Source: Synergistaceae bacterium (GTDB lineage: Bacteria > Synergistota > Synergistia > Synergistales > Synergistaceae). From it: DNA of 48,425 nt. The DNA is taken from the NCBI GenBank assembly GCA_045642965.1, contig JAZUJX010000101.1, positions 1 through 48,425 on the forward strand. The letters are read 5' to 3'. The translations under genes and the position numbers were made by a program. The notes below the pieces were generated by a model. The model saw only the letters and a program-made list of their open reading frames with translations. It did no database searches and was not told the origin of the DNA. Positions 1 through 48,425 of this stretch are shown piece after piece; position 1 is the stretch's first letter; each line of letters begins with the position of its first letter.

Positions 1-945
<945 letters not shown>

Positions 946-1185
946 TTAGTTTGCTACCTTTACCATGCTGTGACGTACGACGGTGTCTTTGTACATATAA
1001 CCCTTCTGAAGCTCCTCGGCTACGATGTTTTCGCCAAAGTTCTCATCCTCTACATGCATCACCGCGTTGTGAAAATCCGGATTGAATTCCTGTCCGACTG
1101 CCTCTATGCTCTTTACGCCGGCTTCTTCAAGGCCGGAGATAAGCTGCGTGTATATCTTATCCATACCGAGTGCCACGCCGCTTTC
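946..1185 (-). pseudogene. grpE: grpE 3' remnant: last ~79 codons plus stop. It lacks the N-terminal ~100 codons that encode the long dimerisation helix and first bundle helix.
   Basis: This is the same reading frame as ORF 946..1650. GrpE similarity starts only around residue 156 of that ORF, and there is no independent start codon or RBS for a full GrpE. Confidence 0.6.
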
Positions 1186-1650
1186 TTTTTCCTCTGCCGT
1201 TTCATCCGGACAGAAGCGCCTTGCGTATTCCGCAAGCGCGGTATTTGCGCCTGAAACGTAGGAGTGCATGCTGTTTGTGGCAAAGCCGAAAGCCGGTATG
1301 CCTGTGCGCTGTTCGACAAGCTTTGCGACGGCTTTGAAATCAGTGCCTAACATTGAAGGAATTATGGTTCCCGCTATTGCTATGAATTCAGGCTTAAGCT
1401 GCACGGCAGTTTCCGCAATGTCGTTTATCAGTTTTTCGTCGCGTCCGAGGAGCGCGTCAAACTGCTCAAGCGCAGAGATATAGACGGCTGACGGCTTTGT
1501 AAACCAGCGCGGCTCGTCGTGCGTCGCGTAGGTTGAGTTGCAGCCTGAGGGGTCGTGCATTACAATCAGCCCTCCAAGCTCATAGAGAGCCGAGGAAACA
1601 CCCATTACGTCGGCGGTATAGGTTGAGAGTATTCTGTTAACCTGCTTCAC
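946..1650 (-). CDS. Chimeric 234-aa ORF. Residues 1 to ~147 are the N-terminal part of a nitrogenase component-1-type (NifD/K-fold, Oxidored_nitro) protein; residues ~156-234 are the C-terminal domain of GrpE.
   Basis: GTG start at 1650. The N-terminus, [45 protein letters not shown]...[16 protein letters not shown]...[26 protein letters not shown], matches my recollection of the Firmicute nitrogenase-component-1-like family, whose members are normally ~430 aa. The C-terminus, [77 protein letters not shown], aligns nearly residue for residue with the B. subtilis GrpE C-terminus (..[57 protein letters not shown]). The position upstream of dnaK is the canonical grpE slot. Confidence 0.8.
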   Translation of the reverse strand: [234 protein letters not shown]

Positions 1651-2950
1651 AGCATCCGCACCCCCAGCCTTTTATCTGTATCAGGTTAATGTCTTTTTCG
1701 TTTTCCGCGGCATCGCGCATTTCGCGAAGAAGCCTGATTATTCCGTCAAAGCCCCACAGCCCTGCGCCTTCGACAATGTTCACAAAGTGCGGCGTTCTGT
1801 TGAAAAATGCCGCTTTCTGCCCCACCGCAAGCACGTTTCTTTCGCCGTGCGGAAGGAACTGCGCAGCAGGATTGAGTGTGGAATATATTTTGAGCTGCGG
1901 CGCGCTTTTTTTCAGCCGTTCAAACGCCGCACTGTCGCCTTCGGCGAATACGTTGCCGTAAACGCCCGTGACGTTGAAGCCGTGCGCAAGCAGATATTCC
2001 GCAAATTCAAGCGGAAGCGGCACCGCAGTATAGTCTGTTTCTACCGGCATGTCTTTTACAATTTTCTTTGTTTCAAGCGCTTCTATTTCGGTTTCTTCTT
2101 TCAGCTTTTCAACGTCGGGCATTTCACAGCCGAGCGTTTCCGCAGCAAGGCGGAGAGAACCTTCAATTTTCGCGTAGTCAAAGCAGAGAGGAAGTATGAG
2201 AGCCTTCTGTCCGAGTCTTTCGCTCAGCGCAAGGTTTCCGCTGTCCGAATAAGGCATTGTGCTGATGTTTGCAACGCTTCCGCCCATGCTCTGAAATTCT
2301 TCGTAGGTTTTGCAGCTGCATACGTCCTTTATTTCATATCCTGCGTTTTCAAGCATCTGCACAAGCTCGCAGCTTTCGGGAAGCGCCTTTACGTTTCCGA
2401 GGATATTGACGCTTTTTCCTTTTGCTTCCGGTTTCAGCAGGGTGTACATCTGCTTTCTCAAAAGCGGCTCTGCCTGCCCTGCTGTCTTGCGCATTATGAG
2501 GTTCATATAGCAGTCGGCAAAGTCAACGTCCGGAAATTTCTTCCGCAGTTCGGAATAGACAAAATTTAAATCGCATCCAATGAAATTGTGTATGCAGGTT
2601 GTAAAAAGAAGTACGGCTTTCGGGCGTTTCGGAAGCTTTTCAAGTATGTCCGAAACACCGTCGATAATCAGCGCGTCTATTTTTCCGTCAATCAGATTTT
2701 TTTCTTCCACCGCTATCGTTGAGAAACGCTCCATACAGCCCATTTCGGCGGCGGTCAGAACAACTCCGCGAAGGCACGCCTGCGCCGCGGCATAAATCTG
2801 ATGGCTTTCGGGAACCAGCATTCCCACGTGGACGATATTCCAGTTGCCCCGTGCAGGCGGACTGTATTCGAGCGACGATTTGAAAGGCGCAGGGAACTGC
2901 GCTTCGGCTATATTCACGACAGCGTTTCTTTCGTTTAGTGCCCTTAACAT
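1637..2950 (-). CDS. Nitrogenase component-1-type oxidoreductase (NifD/K/E/N fold), function unknown
   Basis: The ORF-track protein contains ..SLEYSPPARGNWNIVHVGMLVPESHQIYAAAQACLRG...LLFTTCIHNFIGCDLNFVYSELRKKFPDVDFADCYMN.., typical of the uncharacterised Oxidored_nitro family. I trimmed the start to the ATG at 2950 (MLRALNE), 1 nt after the upstream gene's TAA (2944-2946). The longer track ORF would overlap that gene by 115 nt. The 3' end overlaps the next ORF by 14 nt. Confidence 0.8.
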   Translation of the reverse strand: MLRALNERNAVVNIAEAQFPAPFKSSLEYSPPARGNWNIVHVGMLVPESHQIYAAAQACLRGVVLTAAEMGCMERFSTIAVEEKNLIDGKIDALIIDGVSDILEKLPKRPKAVLLFTTCIHNFIGCDLNFVYSELRKKFPDVDFADCYMNLIMRKTAGQAEPLLRKQMYTLLKPEAKGKSVNILGNVKALPESCELVQMLENAGYEIKDVCSCKTYEEFQSMGGSVANISTMPYSDSGNLALSERLGQKALILPLCFDYAKIEGSLRLAAETLGCEMPDVEKLKEETEIEALETKKIVKDMPVETDYTAVPLPLEFAEYLLAHGFNVTGVYGNVFAEGDSAAFERLKKSAPQLKIYSTLNPAAQFLPHGERNVLAVGQKAAFFNRTPHFVNIVEGAGLWGFDGIIRLLREMRDAAENEKDINLIQIKGWGCGCCEAG

Positions 2951-3855
2951 TTTATTCCCCTGCCTGCCTGTATTTTTCTCATTTTGCATACAAAGAAGCC
3001 TTCGTAAAGCTCTGTCGGCTTTACGCACAGGGCGCCGCTGATTTTTGACGGAAGACACGGGATTGTTTCCATGCCTTCAAATGAGAATGGCACAATTTCA
3101 AATCCGCTGTCCAAAATTTTCAGCACGTTGTCTTCGTTTTCGCTTTCAAGCACGGAGCAGGTGGAATAGACAAGTTCCCCGCCTTTTTTCACAAGCCCCG
3201 CCGCTTTTTTCAGCAGTGAAAGCTGAAGTGCCGCGCTTTTTGAAACAAATTCTTCCGTAAAACCTTCCGGAAGTTTTCCGCCGCTTAAATTCAGGGTTCC
3301 GCTTCCGCTGCACGGCGCGTCAAGCAGTACTTTGTCAAACGAGAGGAAATTATCAAGACGCCTTGCGTCCTGCACCATTACGTACACGGAGTTTGCGCCC
3401 TGCCTTGCAAGGTTGAATTTAAGTTTTTCCGCGCGGATTTTATTGCGTTCGCACGCCGTAACGTGAGCCCTGTTCGCCGAAAGCGCAGCAAGCTGCGTTG
3501 TTTTTCCCCCGGGGGCTGCCGCCATATCCAGTATGTCTTCGCCTGCCTTAGGGTTAAGGACTATCGGCGGAAGCATTGAGGAAAGGCTCTGCAGATATAT
3601 TTTCCCTTCCATGTATTCCGGAAACTCCCATACGGCGCTTTCACGCGCATTTTTTAGAATAAACGCTTCCCTGCTCCACGCGGCGTTCTCAAATTCAATT
3701 CCGGCTGACACAAGCGTCTGCGCAATTTCTTCCGCGCTGCTTTTCAGCAGATTGGCGCGAAGCGTGACGGCACGGTTACATGACAGACCGCTGAAAATTT
3801 CTCCGGCCGTTTCTTCCCCGTACTGCTGTTCAAGAATTTCGCGCAGGAATTCCAT
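2944..3855 (-). CDS. RsmB/RsmF-family SAM-dependent RNA cytosine-C5 methyltransferase, with no NusB-like N-domain
   Basis: Motifs present: DMAAAPGGKTTQLA (SAM motif I), LLDAPCSGSGT (motif IV, catalytic Cys) and LVYSTCS (motif VI). The track start at 3873 is a TTG that overlaps the divergent promoter, so the ATG at 3855 (MEFLREIL) is preferred. Confidence 0.88.
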   Translation of the reverse strand: MEFLREILEQQYGEETAGEIFSGLSCNRAVTLRANLLKSSAEEIAQTLVSAGIEFENAAWSREAFILKNARESAVWEFPEYMEGKIYLQSLSSMLPPIVLNPKAGEDILDMAAAPGGKTTQLAALSANRAHVTACERNKIRAEKLKFNLARQGANSVYVMVQDARRLDNFLSFDKVLLDAPCSGSGTLNLSGGKLPEGFTEEFVSKSAALQLSLLKKAAGLVKKGGELVYSTCSVLESENEDNVLKILDSGFEIVPFSFEGMETIPCLPSKISGALCVKPTELYEGFFVCKMRKIQAGRGIKC

Positions 3856-3867
3856 ATCCCCAACCCC

Positions 3868-3895
3868 TTGCAAAATAGCGTATATGCGCTAAACT
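3868..3895 (+). promoter_or_regulatory. Candidate sigma70-type promoter for the malic enzyme gene
   Basis: TTGCAA (3868-3873), a 16-nt spacer, then TAAACT (3890-3895). An AAGGAG RBS lies ~10 nt before the ATG at 3935. Confidence 0.4.
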
Positions 3896-3934
3896 GTACA
3901 GGTCAATTATACAGGAATAAGGAGATTTGAGACC

Positions 3935-5107
3935 ATGAATTATGCTGACGAGTCGCTTAAACTGCACAGACAGTGGAAAGGCAAGATAGAGGTTGTTTCC
4001 GCAGTAAAGCTTGAAACGAAAGAGGATCTGTCGCTTGCCTATACGCCTGGCGTCGCGCAGCCGTGCCTTGAAATTCAGAAGGACGTGCAGAAAAGCTACG
4101 ACCTGACGCGCAGACACAATCTCTGCCTCGTCGTAACCGACGGAAGCGCGGTGCTGGGGCTTGGAAACATAGGGCCTGAAGCGGGAATGCCTGTTATGGA
4201 AGGAAAATGCGTGCTTTTCAAAACCTTCGGCGGCGTTGACGCTTTTCCTCTCTGCGTAAAATCAAACGACGTTGACGAAATCGTCAACACAATTTACATG
4301 ATTTCGGGAAGCTTCGGCGGCGTTAACCTTGAAGATATTGCCGCACCTCGCTGCTTTGAAATTGAAAAGAAACTGAAGGAAAAATGCGACATACCCATTT
4401 TCCACGACGACCAGCACGGAACGGCGATAGTTACCCTCGCAGGGCTTATCAACGCTCTCAAACTGACCGGCAGAACCAAAGATAACGTTAAAATAGTGAT
4501 TAACGGGGCAGGGGCTGCCGCCATTTCGATTACAAAGCTTCTGTTAAGTTACGGCTTTAAAGACATTACTCTCTGCGACAGAAAAGGCGCAATATACGAA
4601 GGGCGCGGCGGGCTTAATCCTGTTAAAGAGGAAATCGCTCTCCTCACTAACAAAAGCAGAACTTCCGGCGGGCTTTCCGAGACAGTCAGGGGCGCAGACG
4701 TGTTTATAGGCGTTTCGGCGCCGAATGTGCTTACGACGGAAATGGTAAAAACAATGGCGAAAGACTGCATAATCTTTGCCTGCGCCAATCCGACGCCGGA
4801 AATTTTCCCGGAAGACGCAAAAGCAGGCGGTGCAAAAGTCATCGCGACAGGCAGAAGCGACTATCCGAACCAGATTAACAACGTGCTCGCCTTCCCCGGC
4901 GTATTCAGGGGCACCTTTGACGTACGCGCTTCGGACATCAACGAAGAGATGAAGCTCGCCGCCGCTCACGCAATCGCGAACCTTATTTCGGACGAGGAAC
5001 TTAACGAAGATTACATTATCCCCGCCCCGTTTGACAAACGCGTTGCGCAGACGGTCGCAAAAGCCGTTGCACAGGCGGCAAAAGACAGCGGCGTCGCAAG
5101 GATATAA
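3935..5107 (+). CDS. NAD(P)-dependent malic enzyme (oxaloacetate-decarboxylating malate dehydrogenase), short form without a PTA domain
   Basis: Motifs LSLAYTPGVA, VVTDGSAVLGLGNIG, GGVNLEDIAAPRCFEIE, FHDDQHGTAIV and INGAGAAA. Confidence 0.95.
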   Translation: MNYADESLKLHRQWKGKIEVVSAVKLETKEDLSLAYTPGVAQPCLEIQKDVQKSYDLTRRHNLCLVVTDGSAVLGLGNIGPEAGMPVMEGKCVLFKTFGGVDAFPLCVKSNDVDEIVNTIYMISGSFGGVNLEDIAAPRCFEIEKKLKEKCDIPIFHDDQHGTAIVTLAGLINALKLTGRTKDNVKIVINGAGAAAISITKLLLSYGFKDITLCDRKGAIYEGRGGLNPVKEEIALLTNKSRTSGGLSETVRGADVFIGVSAPNVLTTEMVKTMAKDCIIFACANPTPEIFPEDAKAGGAKVIATGRSDYPNQINNVLAFPGVFRGTFDVRASDINEEMKLAAAHAIANLISDEELNEDYIIPAPFDKRVAQTVAKAVAQAAKDSGVARI

Positions 5108-5122
5108 ACTTTATCGCAAACG

Positions 5123-5154
5123 AAAAAAGCCTTCGGTCTCCCGAAGGCTTTTTT
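5123..5154. terminator. Bidirectional intrinsic terminator between the convergent malic enzyme and tpiA genes
   Basis: AAAAAA-GCCTTCGG-tctc-CCGAAGGC-TTTTTT: a perfect 8-bp GC-rich stem flanked by an A-run and a T-run. Confidence 0.85.
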
Positions 5155-5173
5155 CGTTCGTTTGTTTGCAATG

Positions 5174-5953
5174 TTATATCGCGGCTTTGCAGATTTCGAT
5201 AAAGCTGCCGTATTTGAGCGAGGCGCCTCCGACAAGGACTCCGTCGATGTCCGGCTGTGCCATGATGTCTGCGGTGTTGTCAGCCTTGACGCTTCCGCCG
5301 TAAAGTATGAGGACGTTTTCGGCAAAGTCCGCACCGTAAAGTTCTTTTACCGTTTCGCGCACAAATTTGCATATTTCTTCGGCATCCGCAGGGGTAGCCG
5401 TTTTGCCGGTGCCTATTGCCCATACCGGCTCGTATGCGATTATGAATTTGTCCGCCACAGTCTGAATGTCTTTCATTCCTTCGACAAGCTGTGCTTTGAT
5501 TACGTCAAACGCCGTGCCGTTTTCTCTTTCTTCAAGCGTTTCGCCGACGCAGTAGACAGGCGTCATTCCGGCTTTGACCGCGGAAAGAAGCTTTCTGTTA
5601 AGGAATTCATTGGTTTCGCCGAATATGTGGCGTCTTTCCGAATGTCCGATCAGAACGTAATTTATTCCGAGTTCCTGAAGCATCGGTATCGAAACTTCGC
5701 CCGTGAATGCTCCCGATTCTTTGTCGTTAACGTTCTGTGCACCGACAATCATAAGCGGGTCAGGTTTGCATTCAAGCGCTTTAGCAAGCGAGAGGAACGG
5801 CGGAAAAACCGCAATCTGAAGCTGTTTTGTGCCGACTGCCCTGAAAAGCTTGTCATCGTTTTCAAGCAGCGAGCCGAAGCCTTTCATAAAATCTTCGGCA
5901 GCGGCTGTTCCGTTGTTCATTTTCCAGTTTCCGGCTGCAAATATTTTTCTCAT
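5174..5953 (-). CDS. tpiA: Triosephosphate isomerase
   Basis: Motifs AGNWKMN, IGHSERR and AYEPVWAIGTG. Confidence 0.97.
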   Translation of the reverse strand: MRKIFAAGNWKMNNGTAAAEDFMKGFGSLLENDDKLFRAVGTKQLQIAVFPPFLSLAKALECKPDPLMIVGAQNVNDKESGAFTGEVSIPMLQELGINYVLIGHSERRHIFGETNEFLNRKLLSAVKAGMTPVYCVGETLEERENGTAFDVIKAQLVEGMKDIQTVADKFIIAYEPVWAIGTGKTATPADAEEICKFVRETVKELYGADFAENVLILYGGSVKADNTADIMAQPDIDGVLVGGASLKYGSFIEICKAAI

Positions 5954-5964
5954 TTTTCTGCCTC

Positions 5965-5991
5965 CAAAAAATGCTCCGCTGCGCGGAGCAT
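5965..5991 (-). terminator. Terminator-like hairpin with U-tract between pgk and tpiA; possible partial terminator or processing site
   Basis: The minus strand reads ATGCTCCGC-gca-GCGGAGCAT-TTTTTT, followed by GGAGG and the tpiA ATG. Confidence 0.5.
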
Positions 5992-5995
5992 AAAA

Positions 5996-7186
5996 TTACT
6001 CTTTAATTATATAGGGCTCTATGCCGGGAAGCATTTTGCCTTCAAAGAATTCAAGGCTGGCGCCTCCGCCGGTTGACACGTGCGATACCTGTTTCGCGAA
6101 ACCGAAAAGGGTGGCCGCCGCCGCTGAATCCCCGCCTCCGGCTATTGTCAAAGCGCCTTTTTCCGTCGCTTCGGCTATTGCCTTTGCCACCAGACGGGTT
6201 CCCTCCGCAAAAGCTGGCATTTCAAAAACTCCCATAGGGCCGTTCCAAAGCACCGTTTTTGCGTTGTGAATTATTTCCGTAAATTCGGCAACAGTTTTTG
6301 GCCCGATATCAAGCCCGATTTTGTTTGCCGGCATATTGTCGGCATCAACCGTGATATAAGGAGAATCGGCTCTGAATTCGTCCGCAAAGATAAAATCCTT
6401 CGGCAGGACTATCTTTACGCCGAGTTTCTCCGCCTTGCGGAGCATTTCCGCCGCAAAGCCGAGTTTTTCCGTTTCGCAGAGCGATCTTCCTATTTCGTAG
6501 CCGAGTGCCTTCATGAAGGTAAATGCCATTCCGCCGCCTACAAGCACGTAATCGGTCTTGTCAAGCATGTTCTCAACCACACCGATTTTGTCGGAAACTT
6601 TTGAGCCGCCCAATATCAGAACGTAAGGCTTTTCAGGCTTTTCACACGGTGCGGAAAGCATTGTTATCTCTTTTGCCATAAGATGTCCTGCAAAGGAGGG
6701 AAGTATTTCCGTGAGAGCTCTTGTTGACGTGTGCGCTCTGTGCGCAACGCTGAAAGCGTCCATTACGTAGGCGCAGAACGGTGCTGCAAGCTTGCGCGCG
6801 AATTCCGGTGAATTTTTGCTTTCATCGGCATGGAAACGCACGTTTTCAAGCATAAGTATTTCGTCAATCTGGGCGGCGACAGCGTCTTCGACGAGGGGAC
6901 CTGTGCAGTCGCGCACAAAGCGGACTTTAAAGCCTGAAATTTCGGCGAATTTTTCACCGACCGGCTTCAGCGAGCATTTTGGGTCCGCAACGCCTTTAGG
7001 TCGTCCGAAATGGGAAAGCAGAGAAACCCTCGCGCCCATGTCCATCAGCGCTTTAATTGTCGGAATGTGCGATTCAAGGCGTGTAACGTCGGTTACCTGC
7101 CCGTCCTGCATAGGAACGTTGAAATCTACCCTGACAAGAACCTTCTTTCCTGCCACGTCAGACGGCGTAAAGGTTTTCAGCCGCAT
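5996..7186 (-). CDS. pgk: Phosphoglycerate kinase
   Basis: Motifs VRVDFNVP, LSHFGRPKG, IAGGGDSAAA and STGGGASLEF. Confidence 0.97.
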   Translation of the reverse strand: MRLKTFTPSDVAGKKVLVRVDFNVPMQDGQVTDVTRLESHIPTIKALMDMGARVSLLSHFGRPKGVADPKCSLKPVGEKFAEISGFKVRFVRDCTGPLVEDAVAAQIDEILMLENVRFHADESKNSPEFARKLAAPFCAYVMDAFSVAHRAHTSTRALTEILPSFAGHLMAKEITMLSAPCEKPEKPYVLILGGSKVSDKIGVVENMLDKTDYVLVGGGMAFTFMKALGYEIGRSLCETEKLGFAAEMLRKAEKLGVKIVLPKDFIFADEFRADSPYITVDADNMPANKIGLDIGPKTVAEFTEIIHNAKTVLWNGPMGVFEMPAFAEGTRLVAKAIAEATEKGALTIAGGGDSAAAATLFGFAKQVSHVSTGGGASLEFFEGKMLPGIEPYIIKE

Positions 7187-7189
7187 AAT

Positions 7190-8206
7190 TTAGACTCCTT
7201 TTGAAAGGATGTAATCCGCAAGGTCAACAACTCTGTTGCTGTATGCCCATTCGTTGTCATACCACGAGAGGATTTTTATCATGTCACCCATGACGTAGGT
7301 ATGCTCAGGCGCAAACACCGATGAGTTGGCGTCTCCGCAGAAGTCCATTGAAACCGTATCTTTTTCGGCATAGCCGAGTATGCCTTTGAGTTCGCCTTCA
7401 GAGTATTCTTTCATAGCCGCGTTGATTTCTTCGACCGTTGCAGGTTTCTCAAGCACGGCTGTCAGGTCAACGACGGAAACGTCAGGCGTTGGAACGCGGA
7501 GCGCAAAGCCGTTGAGTTTGCCTTTGAGTTCCGGCATTACGAGAGAAATGGCTTTGGCTGCCCCCGTCGTTGTCGGGACTATTGACAAAGCCGCCGCACG
7601 TCCGCGTACAATTTTGGGACGCGGTATGTCAAGAATTGCCTGGTCGTTTGTATATGAATGAATTGTGTTCATAAGACCTTTGACAATGCCGAATTTCTCC
7701 TGAAGCACCTTGCATACGGGGGCAAGGCAGTTCGTCGTGCAGGAGGCGTTTGAAACGATGCTGTGTTTCGCAGGATCGTATATTTTCTCGTTGACGCCCA
7801 TAACTATTGTCGCGTCTTCATTTTTCGCAGGCGCGGAAATGATGACCTTTTTCGCTCCTGCTTCAATATGGGCCTTCGCTTTGTCTGCGTCCGTAAAACG
7901 TCCGGTTGACTCTATAACGAGGTCAACGCCCATTTCCTTCCACGGAAGCTTTGCAGGATCCGGCTCAGCGACAGCTTTGATTCTCTGTCCGTTGACGACA
8001 AGCGTGTCGCCGTCGAGCTGTACGTCTCCCTGGAATCTTCTGAAGGTTGAGTCGTATTTCAGCAGATACGCTAGCGTTTCGGGCGGTGTCAGGTCGTTGA
8101 TCGCCACAATTTCAAAATTGTTTTCCTTGCCGTTCGTAAAGAAAGCCCTGGTCGTAAGACGACCTATGCGTCCAAAACCGTTGATTGCAACTCTGTACTT
8201 TGTCAT
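7190..8206 (-). CDS. gap: Glyceraldehyde-3-phosphate dehydrogenase
   Basis: Motifs [21 protein letters not shown] and WYDNEW. Confidence 0.97.
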
Positions 8207-8266
8207 TGCCGTTTCACTCCCTGTTCGTCATCGGACTAAACGTCCGGTAAATTTTTGGTATGCTGT

Positions 8267-10222
8267 TTATTTGTTCTCAAGGTTCTCATAGAGTACCCTG
8301 AGCATTTCGCCGTGAGCCATTGCGTTCAGAACGTCTCCGTGCGGTTTGTAGGGCATTGTGCCGTCAAAGAATTCCGCTACGCAGCCGAGACCGCCATGAC
8401 GGAGATGCGAGCTGAACGGGCGTATGAACATCCACGCAACGCGTTTGTTTTCCGGATATGCTTTCGTATATGCCGTAATGAACTGTCCGAGAAGCCACGT
8501 CCATGCCGTTCCGCGGTAACGGGCCTTGTTGAGAGTTTCTTCGCTGCCTTCGGCGCGGCCTTTGAATTTGTCGTCCTTCGGGTCAAGCGTACGGAGTCCG
8601 TAGGTTGTGTAAAGCGCATCCCAGCAGACGCGGATAATTTTATTAACGGCTTCTTCGGAAAGCGCCGTGTAAGGAAGCGATGCAGCAAGAATCTGGTTGG
8701 GGCGTACGCTTGAGCTCTTTTCGGAACCGTCTGCAAGTATCCAGTCGCAGAGGCATCCGTGTGCATTGTCCCAGAACATTTTTTCGAATTCTGCTTTGAA
8801 TTTGTCCGCCGTTTCCGCGTATTTCTTTTCTGCCGCGGCATCTCCGAGTTCTGCCGCACATTTCTCAGCCGTTCTGAGAGCGTTGTACCAGAGAGCGTTG
8901 AGCTCTACAAGGCAGCCTTTTCTCGTAACGACGTTTTTGCCGGAAACGACAGAGTTCATCCAGTGGCGTGCCGGATTTTCGCTGTTTACGCTGAGGAATG
9001 CGCCCTTTTCGAACGTAAGGTCAAGCACTTCAATGCCCTGCATGTAACGGTCAGCTATATCCATAACGCCCTTTGCTATTTCGGCGTCCTTTGTGCCTTT
9101 AAGGTATTTCTCTGCAGCGTAGACAAACCAGAGACCGTTGTCGGCGCCTGCGGTCGCAAGCTGTCCGTCTTCGGCAATGCGTTCGGGCATTACCGTGTCG
9201 TTTTCGCGGCATTTCTTGAGCCAGTTGTGCAGTGCGGATTCGACTATATCAGCCCTGCCCGTTGCAAGAGCAAGCCCAGGAAGCGCCACAAACGTGTCGC
9301 GCGAACGGCGTTCTGTTGAAGGGTAGCCTGAATATATCTTGGCGGGTTTGTCTTCTTTGTTGTCTATAAGATGATACGCGGCAACTATCATGTCGCATGC
9401 CGCAGTATTCGAAGGTTCAAAACTTGCTTTTTCGAGAAGTTCTGAGTAGCGTTCGGTTTCTTTGCGGAAAAATTCTTCCAGCTGCTCAGGCGTGTAATCC
9501 TGTTTTTCCCCGGACAGCACTATAAACGCAACGTCGCCTTCGTTCATTTCAAGCGTGAGCGTTCCCGGTGCCCAAAGGCTGTCGCCCGACGCGTTCTGAA
9601 CGTCGTCCTGCTCGTACATGACGTTTTCAAACCAGAGAGGCTTTATTTCCCATTTGCCTTTTGTGGCAGTGCAGAAGCTTGACAGCCCGTAGCCTTCAGC
9701 TTTAATCGTCTGTCCGCCGCTTGTCGCAACCGCGAAATCGTTCTGCTTGTATTCCGAACGTATTTCGGAGTTAAGTCTGTGCGCAAAAAGAGGACGCAGT
9801 TCAAGCTGGATTTTCTGCGGGGCCGATACTGCTTCATAACGGATTACCGTGCAGGTTTCGCCCTGCGGCATAAATATTGATTTCTTAATAAACGTTCCGT
9901 GAATGACAAAAAGCATGTTCGGGAACGGATTGCCCTTGTATTCCTGTATGTAGCGGAACCCGTCCGGATAGACAAGATCCTTGTAACGGTTTGTGGAGAG
10001 CTGATATTTTTTGCCGTTTGACAGAACCGTTTCTTCGACTTTGCTTACAAGCACGGAATGACGCACTTCACCCGTGGGTCTTACGACCAGAAGCCCGTGC
10101 TCTCTTCTGGTATTTGCTCCTATGACCGTTGAGAAGCCGTAGCTTCCGAGTCCGTTGGAAACGAGAAATTCCCTTCCCGCTCCTTTTTCGTAGGTGTTGA
10201 CGTCAACCTTCCCTAAGTACAT
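8267..10222 (-). CDS. Glycogen debranching enzyme / amylo-alpha-1,6-glucosidase family protein
   Basis: 651 aa. The N-terminus, REFLVSNGLGSYGFSTVIGANTRREHGLL, and the C-terminal barrel region, YRGTAWTWLLGQFITAY, are typical of bacterial/archaeal GDE proteins. Confidence 0.85.
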   Translation of the reverse strand: MYLGKVDVNTYEKGAGREFLVSNGLGSYGFSTVIGANTRREHGLLVVRPTGEVRHSVLVSKVEETVLSNGKKYQLSTNRYKDLVYPDGFRYIQEYKGNPFPNMLFVIHGTFIKKSIFMPQGETCTVIRYEAVSAPQKIQLELRPLFAHRLNSEIRSEYKQNDFAVATSGGQTIKAEGYGLSSFCTATKGKWEIKPLWFENVMYEQDDVQNASGDSLWAPGTLTLEMNEGDVAFIVLSGEKQDYTPEQLEEFFRKETERYSELLEKASFEPSNTAACDMIVAAYHLIDNKEDKPAKIYSGYPSTERRSRDTFVALPGLALATGRADIVESALHNWLKKCRENDTVMPERIAEDGQLATAGADNGLWFVYAAEKYLKGTKDAEIAKGVMDIADRYMQGIEVLDLTFEKGAFLSVNSENPARHWMNSVVSGKNVVTRKGCLVELNALWYNALRTAEKCAAELGDAAAEKKYAETADKFKAEFEKMFWDNAHGCLCDWILADGSEKSSSVRPNQILAASLPYTALSEEAVNKIIRVCWDALYTTYGLRTLDPKDDKFKGRAEGSEETLNKARYRGTAWTWLLGQFITAYTKAYPENKRVAWMFIRPFSSHLRHGGLGCVAEFFDGTMPYKPHGDVLNAMAHGEMLRVLYENLENK

Positions 10223-11114
10223 TGGTACCCTCTCCCTTCAAGATTTGAGAAGCCAGTTTATAGATTTTCTGCCACCTATATTCTACCGTACTTTTGCCGA
10301 TTGGACGTGATAATTTTTTGCCAAGTTCACATAAAGTTGCTTCCGGATATTCTTTCCTGAGTCCAATCAGCTCTTTCAGAGCTTCCGGAAGCTTTCCGAA
10401 AGCGTCTTCTTCCTCAAGCCGTTTTATCAGCTGAAGCTGTTTTGCCGCGGTTTGAGCGGTTTTGCCTATGTTTGCCATATCGCAGTTCATCATTCTGTTC
10501 TGCACGTTCTGCGTCTCGCGCATTATCGATTTGTCTTCGAGAGCGAGAACAGTGTTCACACAGCCGGTCCAGCCGATAAAATCAACAATCTGCTGTCTGT
10601 CCCTGAGGATAATTTCCGTGTTGCTGTTTTTCGTCCGCACGGATGCGTTTATCTTAGCCAGCCGCAGAAGCTCAAGCATCTCTTCTTCATGTCCGTTCTG
10701 CGGAAAACGCATTACAAGATAATAGCCTGTTTTCGGAATGTACAGCGAGCCTGTACTTCCGAAAAAGCCCCGTCCCCACGACCAGAAACGTTTTTTGCCG
10801 GCGTCAAAGCCTGAAGCACCGTCGCATATTTTTTCAACCGCCCTGCCGTGCACGAAGAAAAATATTTTCCCGTTCTGCTGGCTCGAAACAAGTTTGACGT
10901 CATCTATAAAGAGACTTCTGTCCTCAGCAGCGATTTTCCCCCACAGTGCAAGCAGCCTTCTGTAGACAAAAAGCCTGGAGGTCTGAAACATCGCGCCTTC
11001 CGTCATTTCTGTCTGAGGAAGACCGCAGAGTATGCCGTACATTTCATCTTCGTACGGTCTGCAGGCTTTCACGCTGCTCCATTCATACCATAAATCCTTG
11101 TTAAGGCTGTTCAT
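10203..11114 (-). CDS. whiA: DNA-binding protein WhiA
   Basis: 303 aa. It contains ..NRMMNCDMANIGKTAQTAAKQLQLI.. and a C-terminal HTH (ATLCELGKKLSRPIGKSTVEYRWQKI). Its ATG overlaps the yvcK TGA as ATGA, and it sits in the conserved rapZ-yvcK-whiA context. Confidence 0.9.
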   Translation of the reverse strand: MNSLNKDLWYEWSSVKACRPYEDEMYGILCGLPQTEMTEGAMFQTSRLFVYRRLLALWGKIAAEDRSLFIDDVKLVSSQQNGKIFFFVHGRAVEKICDGASGFDAGKKRFWSWGRGFFGSTGSLYIPKTGYYLVMRFPQNGHEEEMLELLRLAKINASVRTKNSNTEIILRDRQQIVDFIGWTGCVNTVLALEDKSIMRETQNVQNRMMNCDMANIGKTAQTAAKQLQLIKRLEEEDAFGKLPEALKELIGLRKEYPEATLCELGKKLSRPIGKSTVEYRWQKIYKLASQILKGEGTNVLREG

Positions 11115-12232
11115 CAGTCGCCTTTACGCTCTTTATACTCCCTGGCAAGCAGCATAATTGTCTCTGCAAGATTCTGCGCGTTGTGTCTCAGATATTTCCC
11201 GTCTTTGACAGCGATATAATTGCCGTATATAACTTTTGTACCAAGCGAACTGAGATATTTTTCCTCTTTCGCCGAAAGATAAAGCGGCTCAGCCCCTATC
11301 TTCCCGTAACGTTTCAGAAATTCCCCGGGCACGGGAGCCTGGTTTGCAAGCAGATAATTCGGAACAGAGCCTGTAACCCCGGCAATCCAGTCTATGTGTG
11401 CAAGGATATTCATGCCTTCAGTTTCTTTGGGCTGCGTAACAAGGTTTGCCACGTAAACAACCGGAGCTTTTGCTTCATGCAGCAGATCTGCGATTTCTTT
11501 AAGCAGAAGATTCGGCATTACGCTTGTAAAAAGGCTTCCTGGCCCAAGAACTATAATATCCGCGTTTTTGATTGCGTCTTTAACCGCTTCGACAGGCTTT
11601 GCGGACGAAGGCTCAATCCAAAGCTTTTCCAGGCGGCTTCCGCTGTTTGAAATCTCAAGTTCCCCGCTCAGTTCTTCGCCGCCCCGCGCAATGCCTTTGA
11701 GTTTAATATTCTCCGTAGTGACCGGCAGAACCCTGCCTCTTATCGCAAGCAGTTTGTTAAGTTCCTCAACCGCGCGCTGAAAATCGCCTCTCAGCTCCGT
11801 AGCCGCAAGCAGCACTAAATTGCCGAGACTGTGCCCCTGCAGTTCGCCTTTGTCAAAACGGTAATTCAGAAGCGCGTTCAGCGAACTGTCGTTTTCCGCG
11901 AGAGCCACGATGCAGTTGCGTATATCACCCGGAGGCAGCATTCCCCATTCGCTGCGCAGTCTTCCCGAACTTCCGCCTTCGTCGGTAACGGCGACAACCG
12001 CCGTTATGTTTCTCGTATAGGCTTTAAGCCCGGACAGAAGCGTTGAAAGACCTGTTCCACCGCCTATGGTGACTATGTCCGGCATTGCGGAAGAATCCAC
12101 TCCTATTGCGTTTCCAATAATCTTGGCTTTTCCGAGCAGCATTTTTTTTGTCCTGCCGCGGAAAAGATACGCGGCAAGAACTGCAAGCAGCAGGGCAAGA
12201 AGAAATCCGCACCAAAAGGCAGACATTACCAC
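11114..12232 (-). CDS. yvcK: YvcK/CofD-like gluconeogenesis (cell-shape) factor with an N-terminal TM helix
   Basis: Motifs IVTIGGGTGLSTLLSGLK and VAVTDEGGSSGRLR. The track start is a GTG; the ATG at 12226 forms a TAATG overlap with the rapZ stop and is an equally likely start. Confidence 0.92.
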   Translation of the reverse strand: MVMSAFWCGFLLALLLAVLAAYLFRGRTKKMLLGKAKIIGNAIGVDSSAMPDIVTIGGGTGLSTLLSGLKAYTRNITAVVAVTDEGGSSGRLRSEWGMLPPGDIRNCIVALAENDSSLNALLNYRFDKGELQGHSLGNLVLLAATELRGDFQRAVEELNKLLAIRGRVLPVTTENIKLKGIARGGEELSGELEISNSGSRLEKLWIEPSSAKPVEAVKDAIKNADIIVLGPGSLFTSVMPNLLLKEIADLLHEAKAPVVYVANLVTQPKETEGMNILAHIDWIAGVTGSVPNYLLANQAPVPGEFLKRYGKIGAEPLYLSAKEEKYLSSLGTKVIYGNYIAVKDGKYLRHNAQNLAETIMLLAREYKERKGD

Positions 12233-48321: not shown

Positions 48322-48359
48322 CTGTAGATTTCTTTTTTAATCGCTAAAAGAGAAATATA

Positions 48360-48425
48360 CTAAAGTTTTTCGACGTTTGCCGCCTGCGGACCTTTGCTGC
48401 CTTCTGTGATTTCGAAGGAAACTTT
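48360..48425 (-). CDS. Cold-shock protein (CspA family), last 21 codons plus stop; the 5' part lies beyond the window end
   Basis: Reverse-strand translation gives KVSFEITEGSKGPQAANVEKL*, the conserved CSD C-terminus. Confidence 0.8.
   Translation of the reverse strand, partial: KVSFEITEGSKGPQAANVEKL

Follow-up and report, generated by a model that had tools for sequence, protein, structure and literature searches.

The window analysed here is an entire contig of 48,425 nt (JAZUJX010000101.1), deposited as part of a Synergistaceae bacterium assembly, and the ORF under study lies close to one end of it, on the minus strand at 946..1650. A sequence-only reading had described this ORF as a single uninterrupted frame that begins as a nitrogenase-fold protein and ends as GrpE, directly upstream of dnaK. 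That description holds: the ORF runs from a GTG start through 234 codons with no interruption, and the deposited sequence passes the junction between its two parts in frame, without a break or any N. The junction lies 1.2 kb from the contig end, which itself falls inside dnaK. This end of the contig carries the following features:

1..906, minus strand: dnaK, first 302 codons, Lachnospiraceae-type (HSP70 Pfam, E 1e-137), cut by the contig end
907..945, minus strand: grpE-dnaK spacer with an AGGAGG ribosome-binding site, within the 81-82% DNA alignments to the Lachnospiraceae grpE-dnaK loci L005, L007 and L008
946..1177, minus strand: grpE 3' end, last 76 codons (V159-N234) plus stop, Lachnospiraceae-type (Pfam GrpE profile positions 83-164 of 165)
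1178..1200, minus strand: crossover zone, 23 nt, purine-rich, coding for AEEKESG and readable as either parent
1178..1650, minus strand: nitrogenase-component-1-like gene, codons 1-158 (378 aa when intact), Synergistaceae, 98% amino acid identity to the protein P0002
1637..3058, minus strand: upstream Oxidored_nitro partner, intact, host DNA (PF00148 profile positions 37-394 of 399)

The domain search that the sequence-only reading had proposed returned two half-length Pfam matches, in keeping with its view that two protein families meet in this ORF. Oxidored_nitro (PF00148) matches ORF residues 28-154 at profile positions 17-144 of 399 (E 3e-13), scoring 49.7 bits against a gathering score of 28.6, with the full domain of about 400 positions and three Rossmann-like subdomains not covered. 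GrpE (PF01025) matches residues 152-233 at profile positions 83-164 of 165 (E 1e-23), scoring 84.1 bits against a gathering score of 25.8. The ORF stays under the cut-off of every NCBIfam GrpE equivalog (at the top, 94.9 vs 137 bits) because just half of GrpE is present, and its top solved-structure match, the Geobacillus kaustophilus GrpE 4ANI, is matched at residues 123-212 of 213. An exact look-up found no other gene on record with an identical 234-aa product; the fusion protein is a singleton, seen in one contig only, and no second protein combining PF00148 and PF01025 was found among the best 120 matches listed.

The ORF resembles GrpE in that residues 152-233 correspond to its C-terminal part, with 75-88% identity to Lachnospiraceae GrpE, and in that it stands directly upstream of dnaK as in an hrcA-grpE-dnaK operon. 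The segment at 946..1177 encodes the end of the GrpE four-helix bundle and the beta domain, and the complete architecture of N-terminal long helix, four-helix bundle and C-terminal beta domain is absent. The ORF has no long helix, as had been noticed from the letters, and the bundle is missing its first half; the conserved NFERGL segment is gone with them. In published GrpE-DnaK structures, the N-terminal helix and this part of the bundle serve in dimerisation and make some of the contact with DnaK. The dnaK gene starts at nt 906, 39 nt past the ORF stop, and exits the window start after 302 codons; between the two there is too little space for a separate grpE, and tblastn found no second GrpE encoded elsewhere in the 48,425-nt window, so that the earlier statement that no separate full-length grpE lies between the ORF and dnaK stands.

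On the other side of the junction, the nitrogenase-fold piece is the first subdomain of a protein that is NifD/K/E/N-like and uncharacterised. The closest relative of ORF residues 1-158 is P0002, a complete 378-aa protein with 98% amino acid identity, and its contig, L001, is 95-96% identical to the window at the DNA level from 1178 to 11651 (96% in the nitrogenase-like gene). Below nt 1178 there is zero similarity between the window and L001: on the window's sense strand the sequence reads ...GAGGAAAAAGAAAGCGG up to the breakpoint at nt 1178 and CGTGGCACTC beyond it, and the L001 counterpart reads ...GAAAGCGG and then AAGCGTCAAT. The gene is intact in L001 and in the related loci L083 and L084 (376-378 aa; 98, 90 and 73% amino acid identity, respectively). 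Compared with these relatives, about 58% of it is missing from the ORF; the family and the loss of the C-terminal part had thus been recognised correctly from the sequence, and the expected full length of about 430 aa and the two-thirds extent of the loss need revision.

Comparison of gene order with close relatives, also proposed beforehand, gave a uniform picture. All three loci carry, in order, genes for a malic enzyme, an RsmB/F-type methyltransferase, an Oxidored_nitro protein of 436-437 aa, the intact Oxidored_nitro protein of 376-378 aa, a lysA-type decarboxylase and an amino-acid kinase, and no grpE or dnaK was found downstream of the nitrogenase-like gene in the 6-10 kb read in each. 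In the 90%-identity cluster to which the nitrogenase-like protein belongs, 13 members of 227-378 aa are listed, and a GrpE tail is found on no other member. The locus resembles the nitrogenase-component-1-like pairs of Synergistaceae and Clostridia (NifD/K/E/N- and BchB-like, PF00148) in ORF residues 1-158 and in the intact upstream partner, and differs from them in lacking residues 159-378. Even the intact nitrogenase-like protein falls well short of the cut-off of every NCBIfam equivalog (NifE, BchB, NifD, CfbD).

Several further observations concern this gene pair and its surroundings. The pair (window 1178-3058, minus strand; L001:8701-11137; L083:2293-4720; L084:4704-7131) is conserved in Synergistaceae between the RsmB/F-type methyltransferase gene and lysA, with a 14-nt overlap of start and stop, and no NifH-type partner gene lies adjacent to it in the loci read. 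The partner ORF at 1637-3058 (minus strand) is 473 aa long when read from an upstream GTG, and its relatives are called at 436-437 aa; its true start probably lies some 36 codons downstream of that GTG. Past lysA and the kinase, L001:14780-20965 holds two DNA methyltransferase genes and an AAA_5 / DUF2357-PDDEXK_7 pair, which looks like an McrBC-like restriction system. L083 and L084 have glycosyltransferase genes in place of these, and the region is strain-variable.

The remainder of the contig agrees in lineage with the nitrogenase-like gene. Phosphoglycerate kinase (PGK), GAPDH, an AAA ATPase, V-ATPase subunit I and PBP2, spread over nt 3935-48019, fall into 90%-identity clusters with NCBI proteins named Synergistaceae bacterium or Ca. 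Equadaptatus faecalis, as does P0002. Ca. Equadaptatus is a genus of MAGs from horse faeces that has been placed in Synergistaceae (PMC8957277). Judged by these matches, window 1178-48425 is a Synergistaceae genome fragment of a Ca. Equadaptatus-like organism. The far contig end, at 48345-48425 on the minus strand, also stops within a short conserved gene, whose last 63 nt encode ...KVSFEITEGSKGPQAANVEKL followed by the stop, which we take to be the C-terminal end of a CspA-type cold-shock protein. It appears, then, that the contig breaks off in widely conserved genes on both sides, and such genes are expected branch points of assembly graphs.

The grpE-dnaK side points to a different phylum. 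The best protein matches of the DnaK head share 86-90% identity, and those with names are Lachnospiraceae; most of them are incomplete proteins, several labelled partial. When the GrpE tail was scanned as a 77-aa query against one genome per species for 185,579 species (GTDB representatives), the best 80 loci had 70-88% identity and were almost all labelled Lachnospiraceae or other Clostridia, with Sporofaciens at the top (88%) and Roseburia, Dorea, Faecalicatena, Mediterraneibacter and others following. No Synergistaceae occurred among these best 80 loci. At the DNA level, the grpE-dnaK loci L005, L007 and L008 were best, with 81-82% identity over window 6-1173, and in none of about 160 grpE-dnaK loci does the alignment continue past nt 1199. 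The grpE ORF was read in eight Lachnospiraceae loci; each is uninterrupted, has 215-244 codons and stands directly upstream of dnaK. By all of these comparisons, window 1-1178/1200 is a Lachnospiraceae-type grpE 3' end followed by the 5' half of dnaK, and is foreign to the contig body.

The source of this foreign stretch has relatives at some distance. Protein-guided scans did not find the donor grpE-dnaK itself, the nearest loci being at most 88% identical at the amino acid level in genomes, at most 84% in metagenomes, and at most 82% at the DNA level. A degenerate 10-residue protein pattern for the true donor grpE gave 0 matches in the species-representative genomes, and the JGI metagenome collection contained no exact copy of a 24-mer taken from just below the junction. 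Queries made from gene fragments returned mostly short or partial targets (GrpE 72-134 aa, DnaK 300-530 aa), and the fusion protein, P0001, was not listed for the GrpE-tail-only query; candidate choice seems to favour targets of similar length, and closer full-length relatives may therefore have been missed. We also considered whether the short GrpE entries of 72-134 aa represent a natural truncated family and rejected this, because their starts are Met codons inside ordinary GrpE and the genomic loci read have ORFs of 215-244 codons; more likely they reflect alternative start calls or partial entries.

Codon usage changes at the junction. We scored genes by a codon log-likelihood ratio of a host model against a Lachnospiraceae model, with the nitrogenase head kept out of training. 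Host genes of the window scored +0.13 (SD 0.08) and Lachnospiraceae genes -0.14 (SD 0.09); the nitrogenase head was host-like at +0.19, the grpE tail scored -0.07 (72 codons) and the dnaK head -0.19 (296 codons). Six codon families differ between the foreign part and the host genes (Fisher p 7e-4 to 4e-14): Lys AAG makes up 28/30 (93%) of lysine codons in the foreign part and 254/963 (26%) in host genes (p 4e-14), followed by Ala GCA (71% vs 31%, p 5e-6), Arg CGT (69% vs 17%, p 1e-5), Val GTA (53% vs 20%, p 6e-5), Gly GGT (45% vs 14%, p 9e-5) and Ile ATA (8% vs 39%, p 7e-4). High expression of dnaK does not explain the difference, because the highly expressed genes of the host (GAPDH, PGK, TIM, V-ATPase) prefer AAA for Lys (71-75%), the opposite direction to the foreign part. 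GC content is uninformative alone (48% in the foreign part vs 50-52% in host genes).

The two lineages overlap by a few codons only. Synergistaceae homology, followed in L001, reaches down to nt 1178, and GrpE homology, followed in L005, reaches up to nt 1200 (tblastn), with the L005 GrpE alignment beginning at residue 134 of 217. The 23-nt overlap is purine-rich (sense GCAGAGGAAAAAGAAAGCGG...) and codes for AEEKESG (ORF residues 151-158 region). The junction is thereby placed at nt 1178-1200, residues 151-158, instead of at roughly nt 1183-1209 and residues 148-156, as had been estimated from the letters. At the crossover L001 has a native inter-domain linker, variable and acidic, with CVPCERETNTINLLGV in L083 and CIPCKKEKDTINLLGV in L084 at the same place, and the nearest Lachnospiraceae GrpEs have a colinear, same-frame segment, ...NFERGLATVPEEEKNGAFAQGIEKIYKQL; AEEKESG is colinear with the acidic GrpE loop EEEKNGA, gap-free and in the same frame. 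The switch of lineage thus falls within a Glu/Lys-coding, purine-rich stretch that both parents have at the equivalent site. The two genes translate this stretch in one and the same frame, so no selection is needed to account for the preserved reading frame. We infer that the donor grpE, whose best matches found have 82% DNA identity, would have shared about 17-23 nt with the Synergistaceae gene and so have offered the assembler a bridging k-mer. About 23 shared nt is borderline for the smallest minimum k usual in assemblers of this kind.

Together these data argue that ORF 946..1650 arose artefactually, through the joining of DNA from two unrelated organisms in one sample, and that this end of the contig is an inter-genome chimera, a reading to which we give a probability of about 0.9 because of the switch of phylum, the sharp break at nt 1178, the intact parental arrangements, the switch in codon usage, the shared motif, the singleton status of the fusion and its position at a contig end. 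Four of six features considered for chimeric contigs were found here, namely different lineages on each side, a codon change-point, intact parental arrangements and a junction that was found nowhere else. The assembler path, or less probably a chimeric library molecule, would have crossed from one genome to the other via a shared k-mer at the (A)EEKESG stretch, followed the Lachnospiraceae grpE-dnaK for about 1.2 kb, and ended at a branch in dnaK. This gene is so highly conserved that many contigs break there. The uninterrupted ORF would then be the automatic outcome of a common frame, and no fusion protein would be expected in any cell; the Synergistaceae organism should have the gene whole, at 378 aa and with lysA after it, and the hrcA-grpE-dnaK operon should be intact in the Lachnospiraceae organism.

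Misassembled chimeric contigs are a recognised class of MAG error, and misassemblies are rarer than mis-binning (GUNC paper, PMC8201837). The present contig resembles inter-genome chimeric contigs of the GUNC class (PMC8201837) in that lineage and composition switch at the same point of one contig, and in that the junction lies at what is probably a short shared sequence, near a contig end in a conserved gene, and is unique to one assembly. It differs in that the frame is kept, so that a plausible two-domain ORF results and not a truncated gene or a frameshift.

The same sequence could have arisen if a Lachnospiraceae grpE-dnaK fragment had entered the Synergistaceae genome very recently through microhomology-mediated illegitimate recombination, replacing the 3' part of the nitrogenase-like gene and the genes downstream of it and leaving an in-frame fusion gene. 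Foreign codon usage and foreign lineage are equally expected after such an inter-phylum transfer and do not by themselves separate it from an in-silico chimera; junction microhomology is also used by illegitimate recombination, and the continuous, in-frame deposited sequence without Ns fits as well. We nevertheless judge this very unlikely, since the fusion is a singleton, with no GrpE tail on the other listed members of the 13-member cluster, and the best 80 GrpE loci include no Synergistaceae. Moreover, lysA and the amino-acid kinase, which directly follow the gene in 3/3 relatives, would need to have been displaced or deleted, two truncated and probably non-functional proteins would be left behind, and no more than 1.2 kb of foreign DNA precede the contig end, which lies in a gene conserved across many bacteria. 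There is a correspondingly slight chance that the ORF is real and expressed, in which case cross-phylum recombination would have given a product that links a nitrogenase-fold protein's first Rossmann-like domain to GrpE's DnaK-binding beta domain.

A physical chimera made during library preparation, when PCR or MDA switched templates at the purine-rich stretch, and then faithfully assembled, would share the switch of lineage and codon usage at a short motif, the singleton status and the position at a contig end, but a single chimeric molecule is rarely deep enough to support a 1.2-kb extension, and we consider this route highly improbable; having the same sequence features as a mis-join in the assembly graph, it is in practice a sub-case of the artefact. 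Least probable are the two remaining explanations, a deletion within one genome that fused neighbouring genes, or recruitment of the GrpE beta domain as a DnaK-binding module in a conserved family. The ORF is indeed uninterrupted and directly upstream of a dnaK with a good ribosome-binding site, and the junction lies in linker or loop regions of both parents, but both the phylum and the codon usage differ between the two halves. We reject a same-genome deletion on the switch of lineage and codon usage and because in L001, the 98% relative, the 10 kb downstream of the gene contain no grpE-dnaK, and a conserved fusion family because the best 120 matches include no second PF00148+PF01025 protein; recruitment is also disfavoured because the GrpE part is without its N-terminal helix and half of the bundle, the first, and stays under every NCBIfam GrpE cut-off. 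The sequence-only reading had offered an assembly chimera, a deletion fusion and a recruited module without choosing among them; the first is retained, and the other two are set aside on account of the phyla, the codons and the intact relatives.

For the chimeric contig end that we favour, the main relevance is one of quality control, and the first 1.2 kb of the contig should be trimmed. The ORF, as far as comparative sequence data can tell, almost certainly does not reflect real biology. The 234-aa singleton is already present in a large protein collection as a PF00148+PF01025 protein and is not to be counted as a new domain architecture; nor does the ORF provide evidence for an unusual DnaK chaperone cycle, and the question of how DnaK obtains nucleotide exchange becomes moot because dnaK would be foreign to the organism of the contig body. 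The locus illustrates how unrelated genes that have a short, low-complexity stretch of Glu and Lys codons in common can give rise to an in-frame, plausible fusion ORF in a MAG. Were the junction true, it would be an unusual inter-phylum gene fusion, and nothing that we found favours this.

Finally, the GrpE searches brought up other unusual entries. P0014 (L002:6329-7195, an ENA scaffold) is a 288-aa GrpE with a tandem duplication of about 80 C-terminal residues, in which residues 117-196 and 209-288 each align to the query tail; this may be either a real internal duplication or another grpE assembly artefact. Two contigs placed in MAGs of unrelated taxa, L030 (JAMPBI010000067.1, 'Alistipes sp.') and L043 ('Agathobaculum sp.'), have a Lachnospiraceae-type grpE with 76-77% identity to the query, and are probably mis-binned.
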